DNA from: a virus | Lineage: Duplodnaviria > Heunggongvirae > Uroviricota > Caudoviricetes | Strand: one strand, 5' to 3' | DNA length: 32,728 bases | Virus record (IMG/VR): IMGVR_UViG_2663762948_000007 | Coordinates: 1-32,728 of that record | Part shown: positions 2,701 to 27,773 of the stretch, piece by piece | Layout: every line of letters starts with the position of its first letter | How positions within the stretch are numbered: the first letter of the stretch is position 1 | Translations under genes and position numbers: made by a program | Notes under the pieces: generated by a model | Database searches by the model: none | The model's input: the letters and a program-made list of their open reading frames with translations, nothing else | What the model was told of the DNA's origin: nothing

Positions 2701-5117
2701 CGCCCTCCTTTTGCCAGATTCCAGACCGCGCCACCGGGTGAAAGGTCACGGCCTATCAACTCGCGGTATCGCCGATCAACAAAACTACCTACCTCCCGCC
2801 CGAATTGCTCATATCCACCGCTAGCCTGAGTCTGGGTATTCCCATTGCCATCAATCTGAATACTGACCTGAGGAGCACTACTACCACCCGGTGTTAAGCC
2901 TGAGATTCCCATAGCACGCACGCCCAGCGATCCGTCAGCGGCGCGGGTCAGTGGCATAATAGCCTCCGGCCCAGCCTCCCCCATCAATCCGGCCCCTTTG
3001 GCAAAGGCAAACAGTGTTGGAGAGCTGACGACAGAGTTACTGTACTGACTGAGATCGGCAGAAGAGTAAACGCCGCCTTTGGCGTTGAATTGCAGGCTCG
3101 CCCCGTAGGACTGAATCGCAGTACCGCTGCTGGCGGAAGACGATGCGGCACCACCGAACAATGAGCCTATCGAGCTGGCTGCATTGGCGATCATCATGTT
3201 AACCATCACCTGTTCGATGATTTTCAGAACACTGACACCCCAGTCTTTCCAGCTCGCTTTATTGCCGTTGAGCATGTCGACGATATTGCTGCTGATACCG
3301 GAAAGCGCGCTTTTCATAGCGTCCGCCGCCAGCGTCGCATAGTTAGTTGAATCATCTACCCAGTCAGCGAGACCGTCTCTGGCGCCAGTCACCCAGTCAG
3401 ACTGCAGCGCATCAATTTGACTGTAATAATCCTCCTGGATGCCCAGCCTCTCAGCTTGCGCATCCTTTAATGCCTGGGTTTCGCGGTCATAAACTGTCTG
3501 GCTGATATCTCCTGACTGATACTGCTTTTGCAGATCGCGCTGCTGATCGAGATAACTGCGCTCTATACTCAGCCTTTCCCTCAGCCTTTCACGCTGCTTG
3601 TCACCGAGTCCGGCCCCCTGAATATCCACGCCCAAATCTGCACGTGCATTCTCGTTCTGCTCCTGCAGATTTGCCACGAACGCCGCTACCTTCGCGTTTT
3701 CTTCATTAGCTTTTTTGACGGCATTAAGGCGATCAACTTCCTGAGCCAGAGACGCAAGTCGTTTCTTCTGGGTTTCGTTAAGCCCCTGCAACTTGCCGTC
3801 AGCTATATCGAACTGCAGTTTTTGCTGCTCGGTCACCACAGCAGTTTTTTTGCCGGTGGTATCGATCAGCTCAATCTGACGCATGTAACTGCGCTCAGCG
3901 CTTTTAAACGCTGAATCCAGTTTCTGACCAGAGGTATTTTTTTGCGGCTTACCGTTTGTTTCCCCGGCGCCAAGGGTATAGTTTGTTTTGACTGGCTCGG
4001 GCAGTTTTATTTCCGGTAGAGTAGATTGGGAGTTTCTCAAAAAGGCCAGTCGCCTCTGGAGCTCAGCCCTTTCGGCCTCCTTACCGGATACGTCCATACC
4101 TATTCTGTTGAAACTCGCCAGTATGCCTTTATCATCGAGATCTGCATTCAGGTTCTTGATGCGCCGTTCAATTTCTGGAATGGAGGCATTCAGGCCGACC
4201 GAACTCCCACCTTTGTACTGGTCTATCAGCTTTCCGGCCTCGGCTCCTACCCTTACCAGCCAGGTGGCAAGGTCCACTACCCCACCAACCAGATCAGTCA
4301 GACCCTGAATAACAGCCGGGTCTTTAAATACATCCCCCATATCTCCAATAGACTTCTGGAGCCCACTCAAATCTACGCTGGCGAGCCCTGCAGCAAGTTC
4401 AATTTTGACGCCGTTGACCTGCGTCTCCATATCCTCAAACAGGGCGTTGACTCTGACCAGCTTTTCAATATCTGCGTCATCGGGCGCCACACCAAACTTC
4501 TTCGCGGCATCCATATACTGACGCAGCTTTTCACTGCCATTGTCCAGGAGCGGCAGCATCTTTGACAGGTCATTACCCAGACTCTCCAGGATGGTAGTCT
4601 TCTCGGCGTTGGACTTAACTTTCTCCAGTGCGTCGCTGATAGCCAGGAGTTGCTTGTCGGGAGATTCTCCGGCCAGTTTCTTAGCCGACAAACCCAGAGC
4701 GTCCAGCGCACCGACCGCCTCACCAGATTTATTAAGAACGGCATCACCGATTTTGTCTCCGACATCTTTAAAGATATCGGCCATCTGATCGCCGGAAACA
4801 CCTGCTTTTTCTGCAGCATATTGCCAGGCTAACAGGGACTGCGTGGACATGTTAAGTGACTTTGCCCAGCGGTCTGATTCGGTAATCTGACGTGAAGTGG
4901 TTTTGAGCAGGTTATACCCCGCCACTCCGGCTCCGATGGCTGCAGCCCCGACTGCTGTTGCGAATCCGGTCATGGCAGCTGCAGCGGCAGCGGCATCCTC
5001 CTTTACCTGCTTACGCCATTTTTGTGAAGCTCGCTCAGCCTGCGAGAGGCCTGAGACAAAACCGCCCACTTTGGCAATCAGGTCGATCGTCAGCGTGCCC
5101 AGTGATTTGGAAGCCAT
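2697..5117 (-). CDS. H: Tail tape measure protein
   Basis: 806 aa, Ala/Gly-rich N-terminus, long coiled-coil middle; follows G-T. Confidence 0.9.
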   Translation of the reverse strand: MASKSLGTLTIDLIAKVGGFVSGLSQAERASQKWRKQVKEDAAAAAAAMTGFATAVGAAAIGAGVAGYNLLKTTSRQITESDRWAKSLNMSTQSLLAWQYAAEKAGVSGDQMADIFKDVGDKIGDAVLNKSGEAVGALDALGLSAKKLAGESPDKQLLAISDALEKVKSNAEKTTILESLGNDLSKMLPLLDNGSEKLRQYMDAAKKFGVAPDDADIEKLVRVNALFEDMETQVNGVKIELAAGLASVDLSGLQKSIGDMGDVFKDPAVIQGLTDLVGGVVDLATWLVRVGAEAGKLIDQYKGGSSVGLNASIPEIERRIKNLNADLDDKGILASFNRIGMDVSGKEAERAELQRRLAFLRNSQSTLPEIKLPEPVKTNYTLGAGETNGKPQKNTSGQKLDSAFKSAERSYMRQIELIDTTGKKTAVVTEQQKLQFDIADGKLQGLNETQKKRLASLAQEVDRLNAVKKANEENAKVAAFVANLQEQNENARADLGVDIQGAGLGDKQRERLRERLSIERSYLDQQRDLQKQYQSGDISQTVYDRETQALKDAQAERLGIQEDYYSQIDALQSDWVTGARDGLADWVDDSTNYATLAADAMKSALSGISSNIVDMLNGNKASWKDWGVSVLKIIEQVMVNMMIANAASSIGSLFGGAASSSASSGTAIQSYGASLQFNAKGGVYSSADLSQYSNSVVSSPTLFAFAKGAGLMGEAGPEAIMPLTRAADGSLGVRAMGISGLTPGGSSAPQVSIQIDGNGNTQTQASGGYEQFGREVGSFVDRRYRELIGRDLSPGGAVWNLAKGGR

Positions 5118-5136
5118 AAACTCTCCGTTGGCGGCA

Positions 5137-5798
5137 TTATGTCCAGCTGGCTCTGGCTTCCTCTAACGAGATTGGTCCATCAGCAGCTTTGACTTTGGTA
5201 AAGTGAAGTGTGAAATCGGTCGGGTTGAATGGTGGGCGCTTGGGGTCTCTGTTAACGTTGGCTATCATGCTGCTCACCAGCCCGGCACCCCACTCAACCC
5301 GCAACATAGGGTTCAGACTCCCGTATCGTTCCCGGTACTTTGCCCAGAGTTGGGACTCTTTGAATGAGAGGACTTCCCGCGCTTCGGCGATTGTTCTGCC
5401 TCCGATTCCGTTGAGGACGAGCTCGCACCAGAATTCGTCTTCGGCGCTGAGCTCGAAGTCTTTCCCAGATCGTTAACTTCCTGAATGGCCAGAAGCAGTG
5501 CTACCGTCAGGCCGCCATCCAGTGCACCACGTTCAGGATCTGCCTCACCAGTAATGTCAGCCGGGGTGAAGATGGGTTTACCATGTTCATCGCAGATGGA
5601 TGCGGCGATACGCCCTGCCACACCATCGACCTTACCACCAAAAGCCAGCACATCGGACGTTGCTGTGTGATAACCCATCGGGCGAACATACACGGTCGCG
5701 GTGATTTTTTTATCGCCTTGCGTCCAGGTGATTTCTTTCTCAACCGGGCGACCGGTAAACGCGCCGGACTCCTTGAGTGCATCAAGTGTTAATTTCAT
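5137..5798 (-). CDS. Tail assembly chaperone G-T fusion made by programmed -1 ribosomal frameshift
   Basis: Canonical G GGA AAG heptamer in G frame; -1 frame continues open for about 110 codons to TAA at 5137-5139, just before the H start. Confidence 0.7.
5313..5798 (-). CDS. G: Tail assembly chaperone G (zero-frame product)
   Basis: gpG-like sequence upstream of slippery site; zero frame continues 49 Ser-rich codons to stop at 5313. Confidence 0.7.
   Translation of the reverse strand: MKLTLDALKESGAFTGRPVEKEITWTQGDKKITATVYVRPMGYHTATSDVLAFGGKVDGVAGRIAASICDEHGKPIFTPADITGEADPERGALDGGLTVALLLAIQEVNDLGKTSSSAPKTNSGASSSSTESEAEQSPKRGKSSHSKSPNSGQSTGNDTGV
5460..5466 (-). other. Slippery heptamer GGGAAAG (programmed -1 frameshift site)
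   Basis: Plus strand CTTTCCC = minus GGGAAAG in X XXY YYZ register with the G frame (codons GGA AAG). Confidence 0.7.
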
Positions 5799-24279: not shown

Positions 24280-24390
24280 ATGCCCTCCATAGTAACCATG
24301 AAACAATAATACGATATGTACTTTTAGAATGCAAACAAAAAATACATCTTGTGCATGGATGGTTTTAGTACAGAGCGTAATAATAAGGGT
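24280..24390. promoter_or_regulatory. Right operator region with PR (minus: TTGCAT-17-TATTAT) and cI promoter; two copies of an 11-mer operator-like motif
   Basis: TACGATATGTA at 24310-24320 (overlaps PR spacer/-10) and TACAGAGCGTA at 24369-24379. Confidence 0.55.
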
Positions 24391-25050
24391 ATGAAAATGA
24401 AATGGTATGAACTGGCTAGATCCAGAATGAAAGAGCTCGGCATAACTCAAGAGAAGTTAGCTGAAGAGCTTGGTATGACGCAGGGTGGAATTGGTCACTG
24501 GTTGCGCGGATCTCGTCATCCATCTCTTGACGAGATTGGTGTGGTGTTTAAATACCTTGGTATTGATAACGTCTCATTCAACCACGACGGTACATTTTCA
24601 CCTGTTGGCGAATACTCATCTGCCCCCGTTAAAAAACAATATGAGTACCCTGTTTTTTCTCATGTTCAGGCCGGGATGTTCTCGCCTGAGCTTAGAACCT
24701 TTACCAAAGGTGATGCGGAGAGATGGGTCAGCACAACCAAAAAAGCCAGTGATTGTGCGTTCTGGCTTGAAGTTGAAGGTAATTCCATGACCGCGCCAAC
24801 AGGATCCAAGCCAAGCTTTCCTGACGGGATGTTAATTCTCGTTGACCCTGAGCAGGCTGTTGAGCCAGGTGATTTCTGCATAGCCAGACTTGGTGGTGAC
24901 GAGTTTACCTTCAAGAAACTGATCAGGGATAGCGGTCAGGTGTTCCTACAGCCACTAAACCCGCAATATCCAATGATTCCATGCAATGATAGCTGTTCCG
25001 TAGTAGGGAAAGTTATCGCCAGCCAGTGGCCTGAAGAGACATTTAGTTAA
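24391..25050 (+). CDS. cI: CI repressor: non-lambda HTH N-domain fused to lambda-type S24/LexA-like C-domain
   Basis: C-terminal 135 aa match lambda cI from memory ([22 protein letters not shown]...ASQWPEETF); N-terminal 90 aa differ; start at MKMKWY with SD AAGGG (ORF track gives longer 24349 start). Confidence 0.85.
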
Positions 25051-25542: not shown

Positions 25543-25869
25543 ATGGATGCACAAACACGCCGCCGCGAACGTCGCGCAGAGAAACAGGCTCAATGGAAAG
25601 CAGCAAATCCCCTGTTGGTTGGGGTAAGCGCAAAACCAGTTAACCGCCCTATTCTCTCGCTGAATCGCAAACCGAAATCACGAGTAGAAAGCGCACTGAA
25701 TCCGATAGACCTTACGGTACTGGCTGAATACCACGAACAGATTGAAAGCAACCTGCAACGTATTGAGCGCAAGAATCAGCGCACATGGTACAGCAAGCCA
25801 CGCAGTGAAATGGGTGTGACTTGTTCAGGCCGCCAGAAAATGAAATTAGGCAGCAAACCACTTATTTGA
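25543..25869 (+). CDS. N: Antitermination protein N
   Basis: MDAQTRRRERRAEKQAQWKAAN arginine-rich motif; matches lambda N; SD AGGAG. Confidence 0.95.
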   Translation: MDAQTRRRERRAEKQAQWKAANPLLVGVSAKPVNRPILSLNRKPKSRVESALNPIDLTVLAEYHEQIESNLQRIERKNQRTWYSKPRSEMGVTCSGRQKMKLGSKPLI

Positions 25870-25880
25870 GAGGAATTAAT

Positions 25881-26504
25881 ATGTCATCAATCCGCTTAAC
25901 TACGAGAATGAAAGAGGAAATCGCTCGTAACGCTTTAATTAAGTCTGGGGTTTTCACTGAACTTGAAGAAGTAACAAAGTTAAAGAACCAGCTTGCACTT
26001 GACGCCAGAGTTATTGCGTTTGGCGGTAAAAAGAAAACTGAGGAAGTGGATCAGTTATCATCCAAGTTGGTAGCTATAAGTGAAGAACTTGAAAAGATGG
26101 GATGTTCATTTTACTCATGCGATGTTCGTTCTACTTCGATTTATCTGACTGTATCTGGAAGAAGGGTTGGCTGGCATTCATACGGAAAAGACGGCAACGG
26201 TGAAGATATATTGCTCCCCACCCCAGAAAAAGATAAATGCATGTTTGACGCAGAACACGAAATAACAAAAAGGTTTGATGAAATCTGCGCATTGCAACAA
26301 AACCTTGAAGCCTTGAAAAAGGATATCGAATCAAATGTATGGGCTGCTTTGAACTCAGTCACAACAGTTAAGCGACTTATTGAAGTTTGGCCTGAAAGCA
26401 AAGAGTTACTACCAAAAGAAGCAGATAAAGCAAGTACAGCACTTCCTGCTTTACGGGTAGAAGATTTGAATAAGATGATTGGACTTCCTTCCGAGGCCGC
26501 ATAG
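25881..26504 (+). CDS. Hypothetical 207-aa protein (accessory gene downstream of N)
   Basis: ATG with SD GAGGAA 12 nt after N stop; charged, coiled-coil-like N-terminus; no lambda counterpart recognised. Confidence 0.65.
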   Translation: MSSIRLTTRMKEEIARNALIKSGVFTELEEVTKLKNQLALDARVIAFGGKKKTEEVDQLSSKLVAISEELEKMGCSFYSCDVRSTSIYLTVSGRRVGWHSYGKDGNGEDILLPTPEKDKCMFDAEHEITKRFDEICALQQNLEALKKDIESNVWAALNSVTTVKRLIEVWPESKELLPKEADKASTALPALRVEDLNKMIGLPSEAA

Positions 26505-26519
26505 TCGGCCTTTATTTTT
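26494..26519 (+). terminator. Intrinsic terminator at the stop of the 207-aa gene
   Basis: GGCCG-CATAGT-CGGCC followed by TTTATTTTT. Confidence 0.6.
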
Positions 26520-26548
26520 GGCATAAACAACAGAATAAACACTGCACT

Positions 26549-26576
26549 GTGTATTCATTCCAACGAGTGAATACAC
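26549..26576. repeat. Perfect 9-bp inverted repeat with 10-bp spacer
   Basis: GTGTATTCA-ttccaacgag-TGAATACAC. Confidence 0.7.
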
Positions 26577-26638
26577 GGAGCAATGTCGCTCGTAACTAAA
26601 CAGGAGCCGACTTGTTCTGATTGTTGGAAATCTTCTTT

Positions 26639-26666
26639 GCCCTCCAATGTGAGGGCGATTTTTTAT
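26639..26666 (+). terminator. Second intrinsic terminator before the 122-aa gene
   Basis: GCCCTC-CAATGT-GAGGGC followed by GATTTTTTAT. Confidence 0.6.
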
Positions 26667-26684
26667 CTATGAGGATATGAATAG

Positions 26685-27053
26685 ATGTCAAACATCAAAA
26701 AATACATCATTGATTACGACTGGAAAGCGTCAATAGAAATTGAAATCGACCATAACGTAATGACAGAGGAAAAACTTCACCAGATTAATAATTTCTGGTC
26801 AGACTCTGAATACCGACTCAATAAACACGGCTCTGTATTAAATGCTGTATTAATCATGCTGGCGCAACATGCTCTGCTTATAGCAATTTCAAGCGACTTA
26901 AATGCATATGGTGTTGTGTGTGAGTTCGACTGGAATGATGGAAATGGTCAGGAAGGATGGCCTCCAATGGATGGTAGCGAAGGAATAAGAATTACCGATA
27001 TCGATACATCAGGAATATTTGATTCAGATGATATGACTATCAAAGCCGCCTGA
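26685..27053 (+). CDS. Hypothetical acidic 122-aa protein
   Basis: ATG with SD GAGGA; Asp/Glu-rich; no lambda counterpart recognised. Confidence 0.65.
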   Translation: MSNIKKYIIDYDWKASIEIEIDHNVMTEEKLHQINNFWSDSEYRLNKHGSVLNAVLIMLAQHALLIAISSDLNAYGVVCEFDWNDGNGQEGWPPMDGSEGIRITDIDTSGIFDSDDMTIKAA

Positions 27054-27125
27054 GCGCGGCGTTACCGCATACCAATAACGCTTCACTCGAGGCGTTTTTC
27101 GTTATGTATAAATAAGGAGCACACC

Positions 27126-27290
27126 ATGCAATATGCCATTGCAGGGTGGCCTGTTGCTGGCTGCCCTTCCGAATCTTTACTTGAACGAATCACCCGTAAA
27201 TTACGTGACGGATGGAAACGCCTTATCGACATACTTAATCAGCCAGGAGTCCCAAAAAATGGATCAAACACTTATGGCTATCCAGACTAA
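27126..27290 (+). CDS. cIII: cIII (FtsH inhibitor)
   Basis: 54 aa MQYAIAGWPVAGCPSESLLERITRKLRDGWKRLIDILNQ..., matches lambda cIII; SD AAGGAG; below ORF-track threshold. Confidence 0.9.
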   Translation: MQYAIAGWPVAGCPSESLLERITRKLRDGWKRLIDILNQPGVPKNGSNTYGYPD

Positions 27291-27402: not shown

Positions 27403-27773
27403 CCCCCTTTCCTGTTTTCCTAATCAGCCCGGCATTTCGCGGGCGATATTTTCACAGCTATTTCAGGAGTTCAGCCATGAACGCTTATTACATTCAGGAT
27501 CGTCTTGAGGCTCAGAGCTGGACGCGTCACTACCAGCAGATCGCCCGTGAAGAGAAAGAGGCAGAACTGGCAGACGACATGGAAAAAGGTCTGCCCCAGC
27601 ACCTGTTTGAATCACTCTGCATCGATCATTTACAACGCCACGGGGCCAGCAAAAAAGCCATTACCCGTGCGTTTGATGACGATGTTGAGTTTCAGGAGCG
27701 CATGGCAGAACACATCCGGTACATGGTTGAAACCATTGCTCACCACCAGGTTGATATTGATTCAGAGGTATAA
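27357..27773 (+). CDS. gam: Gam (RecBCD inhibitor), with internal GamS start
   Basis: 138 aa matching lambda Gam; internal [10 protein letters not shown] start. Confidence 0.95.

Follow-up and report, generated by a model that had tools for sequence, protein, structure and literature searches.

Which gene fills the space between the antiterminator gene N and cIII in a lambda-like phage that has lost sieB and ral, and what may it do there? The question is raised by a caudoviricete genome, the IMG/VR record IMGVR_UViG_2663762948_000007, whose positions 1 to 32,728 make up the window of this work (that is, the whole stretch of DNA analysed, 32,728 nucleotides). A reading made from the sequence alone had placed two open reading frames (ORFs) on the + strand between N and cIII, and they are found exactly there, at 25881-26504 (207 amino acids, aa; ORF207) and 26685-27053 (122 aa; ORF122). 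The same reading regarded both as novel genes set in place of ral, sieB and ea10. The explanation that best accommodates the data, and that we hold somewhat likelier to be right than wrong, is that a module swap has brought in an intact member of the Nmad5 family, ORF207, acting as an early, dispensable and non-catalytic binding protein.

The boundaries of the mosaic were set by aligning the window to lambda, and identity was then measured for each segment. The layout of the locus is as follows.

24349-25050, + strand: cI-like repressor gene (ORF order)
25543-25869, + strand: antiterminator gene N; 25543-25799 is lambda-type, the last 70 bp (23 codons) are divergent and part of the swapped module
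25543-25799: first 86 codons of N, 98.4% identical to lambda 35360-35104
25800-26506, + strand: mosaic replacement module, 707 bp, GC content 40.7%, a foreign segment with no lambda identity that replaces lambda 35103-34083 (alignment to lambda, segment identities, lambda annotation)
25881-26504, + strand: ORF207, Nmad5-family protein of 207 aa, ATG start (PF18757, phrog_1965)
26507-26684: intergenic region, 97.2% identical to lambda 34082-33905
26685-27053, + strand: ea10, encoding lambda Ea10 (DUF2528), 122 aa, pI 4.34 (lambda identity, PF10800, phrog_646); DNA 99.2% identical (366/369) to lambda 33904-33536
Spacer between ea10 and cIII: 97.1% identical to lambda 33533-33464
27113-27171, + strand: cIII thermoregulator RNA element, intact (Rfam RF01804, 88.5 bits, E 1e-21)
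27126-27290, + strand: cIII gene, 99.4% identical to lambda 33463-33299

Downstream of cIII, kil, gam, bet and exo follow on the + strand, and the order cI-like repressor, N, ORF207, ea10, cIII, kil, gam, bet, exo identifies this strand with the leftward pL operon of lambda. From 26507 onward the sequence is again that of lambda, at 97-99% identity. The lambda stretch that has been lost measures 1,021 bp and comprises, according to the lambda annotation, the 3' end of N, sieB, orf28 and ral; in its place stands a single recombination module, made of a variant N 3' end and one gene, ORF207. The locus is a case of ordinary lambdoid mosaicism, a textbook module swap, and its anatomy is considered settled. 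The presumed replacement of ral, sieB and ea10 by two genes is thus right as to sieB and ral, which are gone together with orf28, and wrong as to ea10, which has been kept, one gene having been swapped in.

The variant last 23 codons of N accompany nmad5 in most of 80 lambdoid loci. In a Stx2a phage (locus L173, 352-777) the N protein ends in the same tail (...PRSEMGVTC.GRQKMKLGSKPLI) but has an unrelated N-terminal part, and such sharing of one tail by unrelated N-termini places the recombination junction inside the N coding sequence. Mosaicism concerns the whole window 1-32728 as well, since its structural genes are ~98% identical to those of mEp235 (Hendrixvirinae), its early, replication and recombination regions ~95% identical to lambda. 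Further ORFs occur at this site in prophages of the ST131 type of E. coli: in the prophage of strain ZH063 (locus L007) a 156-aa ORF lies between nmad5 and ea10 (3526-3996), and a 322-aa ORF between ea10 and cIII (4550-5518), and a 301-aa ORF is found between cI and N in ST131-type prophages. None of the three has a Pfam match.

The 122-aa protein is lambda's own Ea10, lying in lambda flanking sequence, and has not been imported. In tblastn searches of phage genomes it is 99.2% (121/122) identical to Ea10 of lambda, and likewise to that of 434, DE3 and many Stx phages. The sole difference from lambda is N24, which is D in lambda. ORF122 matches PF10800 (DUF2528) with 157.7 bits (cut-off 22) as well as phrog_646, and ea10 lies, as in lambda, downstream of tL2a/PreS and upstream of cIII. 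The sequence-only reading had found in neither protein any likeness to lambda, having itself named homology to Ea10 as what would speak against it; for ORF122 such homology exists. Against PADLOC-DB, Ea10 has a chance-level match to CARF_HEPN only (E 0.017, 12 bits). It also bears a faint likeness to SPFH proteins. Some records label Ea10 "ssb". The predicted model has no match to an oligonucleotide/oligosaccharide-binding (OB) fold, and the label of single-stranded DNA-binding protein (SSB) is not supported by the predicted fold.

ORF207 is an intact, full-length member of the large stand-alone Nmad5 family, already catalogued and functionally uncharacterised. It matches the Pfam Nmad5 profile PF18757 with 237.2 bits (cut-off 27; E 2.5e-70), residues 4-203 covering positions 1-206 of the 206 of the profile, and phrog_1965 (PHROG, function unknown) with an E value of 4.8e-83. 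The identical protein is already deposited at NCBI as "Nmad5 family putative nucleotide modification protein", a name given by the Prokaryotic Genome Annotation Pipeline (PGAP), so that the notion of an unrecognisable protein does not stand. The nmad5 gene is present in 211 of 5,426 complete E. coli genomes, every copy carrying the Nmad5 annotation, and proteins 95-97% identical to ORF207 are encoded by the phages mEp235, HK244, PhiR12_2_star and by Stx1a phages. Across 58 nmad5 alleles from lambdoid loci the pN/pS ratio is 0.205, which marks ORF207 as a real gene under purifying selection. NCBIfam scans of ORF207 and Ea10 yielded nothing usable. The ATG at 25881 is preceded by GAGAGGAA. A TTG start at 25821, giving a 227-aa product overlapping N, was rejected, as homologues all start with MSS(I/V)RLT and GAGAGGAA precedes the ATG at 25881. 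An antisense ORF at 26141-26542 (133 aa) is taken as spurious because of the conserved family encoded on the sense strand.

Two scans of IMG/VR were used, one of close E. coli relatives for the statistics of the junctions, the other headed by a distant member for the diverse gene contexts. In the 80 lambdoid loci of the former, nmad5 is usually preceded by the variant N 3' end and followed, after 3-6 bp, by the PreS region described below, and ea10 comes after nmad5 in only about 14 of them. In the Stx2a phage EH1965 (L173, 938-2151) an insertion sequence (IS) of the IS3 family (OrfA 108 aa, OrfB 296 aa), presumably IS629-like, splits nmad5 near codon 34, and the split match recurs in 47 further records of Stx2a-converting phages. 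The interrupted gene implies that those phages can do without nmad5.

A profile search of 1.84 billion representatives (E <= 0.001) retrieved 2,264 Nmad5 clusters at 50% identity. The best 150 of the 2,264 hits are mostly stand-alone proteins of ~200 aa. Conservation was judged on 140 representatives at 25-42% identity. In ORF207 numbering, conserved residues of the N-terminal part are R5, L6, I14, A18, K21, G23, R43 and G48-G49; G93 is also conserved family-wide. Conservation is stronger toward the C-terminus (T162, L166, W170-P171-E172, E175-L176, P178, L188-P189, L196-N197, G201-L202-P203), where a segment of the form T-x-K-[KR]-L-x-x-W-P-E...E-L-x-P...L-P...L-N-x-x-I-G-L-P can be drawn. 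ORF207 carries all the family residues and motifs tested. G, P, L and W make up most of the conserved residues, to which R5, K21, R43, E172, E175 and N197 are to be added, and among the 140 representatives there is no conserved cluster of Cys, His or Asp, nor any catalytic residue pattern. The strings CSFYSC and KDKCMFD, in which cysteine pairs had been noticed, are present in ORF207, and are incidental rather than metal-binding: even enterobacterial homologues differ at C94 and C99, P0071 lacks C120, and no cysteine reaches 50% conservation across the 140 representatives.

The protein is charged, as had been stated (34 D+E, 30 K+R, pI 5.46), and has no transmembrane segment (maximum KD19 0.61). 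The AlphaFold2 model (mean predicted local distance difference test score, pLDDT, 84) features three long helices, in agreement with the coiled-coil-like N-terminus proposed earlier, a small beta insert (residues 86-100) and short helices near the C-terminus, ending in a tail of low confidence. Structural comparison of the model gave no informative match and no similarity to a known enzyme fold, and sequence-profile searches of the PDB with the Nmad5 and Ea10 families found no relatives. In a literature search, no biochemical activity was described for Nmad5, and nothing relevant emerged on Nmad1-4 or PF18757.

Early expression of ORF207 is suggested by its position. Its start codon lies 11 bp past the stop codon of N, the terminator scan detects no intrinsic-terminator-like site between the two genes, and no promoter-like site is seen upstream of ORF207 on its strand. 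Signals that follow ORF207 are listed here.

26493-26512 (T-tract to 26520), + strand: terminator-like hairpin and T-tract over the ORF207 stop codon (terminator scan, lambda alignment)
26546-26577, + strand: inverted repeat with a 9-bp perfect core, 26549-26557 / 26568-26576, identical in lambda
26579-26666, + strand: putative PreS (LPR1), an Hfq-dependent small RNA (sRNA) of ~88 nt, 5' end estimated (lambda identity, preprint)
26637-26658, + strand: tL2a hairpin and U-tract, corresponding to the PreS 3' end (terminator scan)
27077-27101 (stem 27077-96), + strand: terminator-like hairpin after ea10 (lambda sequence, lambda ~33,494)
27427-27444: terminator-like hairpin within the long gam ORF, toward its 5' end (lambda ~33,160)

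The number of terminator-like hairpins is not above chance (4 found vs 2.2 +/- 1.6 in shuffled sequences). The hairpin after ea10 presumably corresponds to tL2b in the tL2 cluster of lambda, and that in the gam ORF is perhaps another member of the cluster. ORF207 lies upstream of every predicted intrinsic terminator, hence dependence on antitermination by N follows for ea10, as in lambda, and not for ORF207. Delayed-early expression had been proposed for both genes, on the view that two terminators and a 9-bp palindrome delimit them. All these signals are present, yet they belong to the PreS/tL2a region of lambda rather than to the borders of a cassette, and none is found between N and ORF207.

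The 180-bp intergenic region that separates ORF207 from ea10 deserves some attention. In lambda, the region between ral and ea10 encodes the Hfq-dependent sRNA LPR1, or PreS, a transcript of ~88 nt processed to ~68 nt whose 3' end is formed at terminator tL2a, and which is expressed in the lytic cycle and raises the translation of dnaN (bioRxiv 10.1101/2024.10.31.621285). The 88 nt up to the U-tract are here 97.7% identical (86/88) to lambda 34010-33923, and the tL2a hairpin (26637-58) is followed by TTTTTTAT. As judged from this identity, the segment 26507-26684 of the window carries the PreS/tL2a region of lambda. Rfam 15 has no PreS model. The 166-nt intergenic RNA folds better than shuffled sequences (z = -6.2). 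As RNA, the stem of the inverted repeat extends to 14 bp, and by size arithmetic the repeat lies immediately 5' of the ~88-nt PreS. From its sequence, this 14-bp hairpin could be an element for the processing or the stability of PreS. The left arm of the hairpin at 26493-26512 is formed by the last codons of ORF207, that is, by the module, the right arm and T-tract by lambda sequence. The hairpin hence forms at the mosaic junction, and is the only new one. It is found in most nmad5-bearing loci, is stronger, T-tract included, than the lambda counterpart, and at 26493-26520 could, on sequence grounds, alter read-through into PreS.

Clues to the role of Nmad5 proteins may be sought in the company that their genes keep. 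In the Yuavirus SN1 the homologue resides in a cluster for thymidine hypermodification and replication, between genes for an aGPT-pyrophosphorylase and a thymidylate-synthase-like hydroxymethylase. In the N4-like phage SP154 the DNA polymerase gene precedes it closely, and ThyX and primase flank it; in an Oceanospirillum phage its neighbours are a helicase and a deoxyribosyltransferase, with methylases close by; in a Vibrio phage it is found near RecE and a replication initiator. In a Providencia prophage the homologue directly follows the repressor and precedes DUF2800, an Enc34-type SSB and PolA, and in a metagenomic lambdoid phage it comes early after a cI-like repressor, ahead of a cytosine methylase. 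Among 25 diverged IMG/VR clusters, 8-10 have the DUF2800 nuclease, the Enc34-type SSB and PolA within four genes of nmad5, and 4 have an S24 repressor just upstream of it. The common denominator of these contexts is early expression beside genes of DNA metabolism, not base modification as such, and the words "nucleotide modification" in the name of the family reflect the gene neighbourhood in some phages only. In eight loci (L094, L095, L111, L128, L132, L134, L143 and L153) a conserved protein of ~250-310 aa with no Pfam match is encoded immediately upstream of DUF2800, two genes upstream of the Enc34-type SSB, in the DUF2800/Enc34-SSB/Nmad5/PolA replication module.

One published study touches on the family directly. 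Dhillonvirus mutants that escape the Tmn system carry K216E or K296E in nmad5, and reverting the K-to-E change restores sensitivity to Tmn; deletion of nmad5 leaves the phage viable and does not confer escape; the gene could not be cloned because toxic, and the wild-type protein gives no protection against Tmn (PMC11846954). The term "DNA modification enzyme" used for nmad5 by the authors (PMC11846954) rests on the family name only. K216 of KarlBarth gp07 (254 aa) corresponds to the second K in TDKKLIKAWPE, and aligns to R165 of TVKRLIEVWPE in ORF207. On this mapping, the escape site falls in the most conserved motif of Nmad5.

Taken together, these data suggest, with low confidence, that ORF207 is a dispensable, non-catalytic binding protein engaged in phage DNA metabolism or in interference with the host. 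According to this proposal, the protein would be made early, probably on the N transcript, in keeping with its start 11 bp after N and with the lack of a terminator-like site in between. It would most likely be dispensable, in view of the IS-split nmad5 of the Stx2a phages and of the viable Dhillonvirus deletion, and non-catalytic, working by binding, as the helical model and the absence of a conserved cluster of catalytic residues suggest. The conserved C-terminal segment would provide the interaction surface. The likely target, given the gene contexts of the relatives, would be a phage or host component of DNA replication, recombination or nucleotide metabolism, and a possible side effect would be a change in how host defences such as Tmn see the infection.

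Several points weigh against this proposal. Gene context and the absence of catalytic signatures, from which the mechanism is drawn, are weak evidence, and no experiment or structural homology points to a partner or an activity of ORF207. The contexts are heterogeneous, and in Dhillonvirus nmad5 is a solitary gene read from the opposite strand, flanked by a spanin gene and head genes. Phages of the lambda type rely on the replication proteins of the host, with no PolA, DUF2800 or Enc34-SSB of their own, so that the association found in other phages may not apply to them. As far as the model goes, ORF207 may have a novel enzyme fold. The terminator scan covers intrinsic sites, and Rho-dependent termination between N and ORF207 is conceivable. 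The mapping of K216 onto R165, in turn, assumes that the PhiSMA8 protein has the length of KarlBarth gp07.

An anti-defence or exclusion role for ORF207 is possible, as far as can be judged from sequence. In its main form, which we regard as a tentative alternative, ORF207 would be an anti-defence protein that substitutes for Ral and SieB functions and inhibits a component of host immunity or restriction early in infection. It occupies exactly the ral/sieB slot, and the site is indeed, as had been supposed, a variable accessory slot of the pL operon hosting a gene of uncharacterised function, a hotspot for early genes that varies between prophages, as the extra ORFs of the ST131 group illustrate. 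In other temperate phages the homologue is the first gene after the repressor. That a K-to-E change in the conserved motif of the Dhillonvirus protein beats Tmn, and the deletion does not, fits an inhibitor gaining a new specificity, and the same protein is toxic in E. coli. Yet ORF207 has no homology to Ral or SieB: hhalign assigns probabilities of 0.1% (Ral) and 0.3% (SieB), and a remote relationship of Nmad5 to either was rejected on these scores. Nor does it match any anti-phage defence or exclusion profile in PADLOC-DB. The wild-type Dhillonvirus protein gives no Tmn protection, and a family whose members are 25-40% identical across phages of many proteobacterial hosts, and sit inside core replication modules, would be unusual among fast-evolving, host-specific genes. 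The "NMAD" domain found in defence systems, validated as well as predicted, of DefensePredictor (Science 2026) is Nmad2, not Nmad5, and was dropped from consideration.

A broader idea, rather unlikely in our estimate, is that Nmad5 is a very large group of small proteins made early by phages and devoid of enzymatic activity, whose conserved C-terminal motif would dock on a conserved host component of DNA metabolism or immunity. The sliding clamp is a speculative candidate for the docking target: the invariant N-x-x-I-G-L-P tail, which follows a low-confidence linker, bears a loose likeness to the hexapeptides that bind the clamp, and PreS, the sRNA encoded next to nmad5, raises the levels of DnaN. 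Were this idea correct, the Dhillonvirus substitution leading to Tmn escape would alter that interface, and the lambdoid copy would be the genetically most tractable member of the family for target finding.

We consider it improbable that ORF207 is an enzyme, or an essential subunit, of a pathway modifying DNA or nucleotide bases. The family owes its name to an association with genes for modification, the Yuavirus SN1 copy lies within a thymidine hypermodification cluster, the Oceanospirillum copy adjoins a deoxyribosyltransferase and has methylases nearby, and that of SP154 adjoins ThyX. In turn, no modification genes occur among the products annotated under the lambda and mEp235 matches of the window, which spans nearly the whole phage, a result that rests on those annotations and not on a screen of each ORF of the window against family libraries; the KarlBarth copy has no modification partners within 5 kb, and neither a conserved catalytic pattern nor similarity to a known enzyme fold has been found in ORF207.

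Even less credit can be given to the idea that ORF207 is expressed from the prophage as a superinfection-exclusion protein replacing SieB. It has taken the position of sieB, and many prophages carry the gene. SieB of lambda resides in the inner membrane, and ORF207, which lacks both a transmembrane segment and SieB homology, has no promoter-like site of its own, so that it would be shut off in the prophage by the repressor at pL; homologues occur, moreover, in virulent Dhillonvirus, Yuavirus and N4-like phages. Least credible of all is the view of the 122-aa protein as a new mimic of DNA or inhibitor of nucleases imported with the cassette: it is strongly acidic, as had been noted (pI 4.34, net charge ~-13), but it is neither new nor imported, being lambda Ea10 (99.2%) in lambda flanks, which refutes it as a novel gene, it does not structurally resemble known DNA mimics of the Ocr, ArdA or Gam type, and ea10 is non-essential in lambda by CRISPR interference (CRISPRi; PMC10695390). 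That Ea10 itself acts as an inhibitor is conceivable.

On the whole, the sequence-only reading is partly confirmed in what it observed and partly supported in how it interpreted it. The finding itself is of little weight, as the module swap brings in a member of an already catalogued family. Nmad5 is, however, a very widespread phage family lacking an assigned function and a structural homologue, with one published hint, that to Tmn. A copy residing in a lambda-like phage, after N and beside PreS, ea10 and the Red genes, makes the family amenable to lambda genetics. The analysis also guards against two unsupported annotation habits, that of calling Nmad5 a "nucleotide modification" enzyme, and that of calling Ea10 an SSB.

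Set against known systems, the locus shares with lambda PreS/tL2 a 97% identical intergenic region, including the tL2a hairpin and the U-tract, and differs in having nmad5, not ral, upstream. With lambda Ral and SieB, ORF207 has in common only the slot in the pL operon, being soluble and ~3 times the size of Ral. The Dhillonvirus proteins (PhiSMS22 CDS6, PhiSMA8 CDS7, KarlBarth gp07) belong to the same Pfam family and share the motifs T-x-K-[KR]-L-x-x-WPE ... LN..IG.P. Overall identity to ORF207 is ~27%, with blast-level similarity only in the C-terminal half; the proteins are longer (254 aa or more), and come from virulent phages, where nmad5 is read from the opposite strand amid genes for structural proteins and lysis. 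The Tmn results concern these proteins only, not lambdoid Nmad5. The closest counterparts are mEp235 gp37 (AFM76255) and HK244 ORF01, which occupy the same slot, after N (or Nun) and before cIII. In mEp235, Nun lies upstream of nmad5, ea10 is missing, and the recombinase is of the Erf/Rad52 type, whereas the phage of the window combines nmad5 with a lambda-type N, PreS, ea10 and the Red genes.

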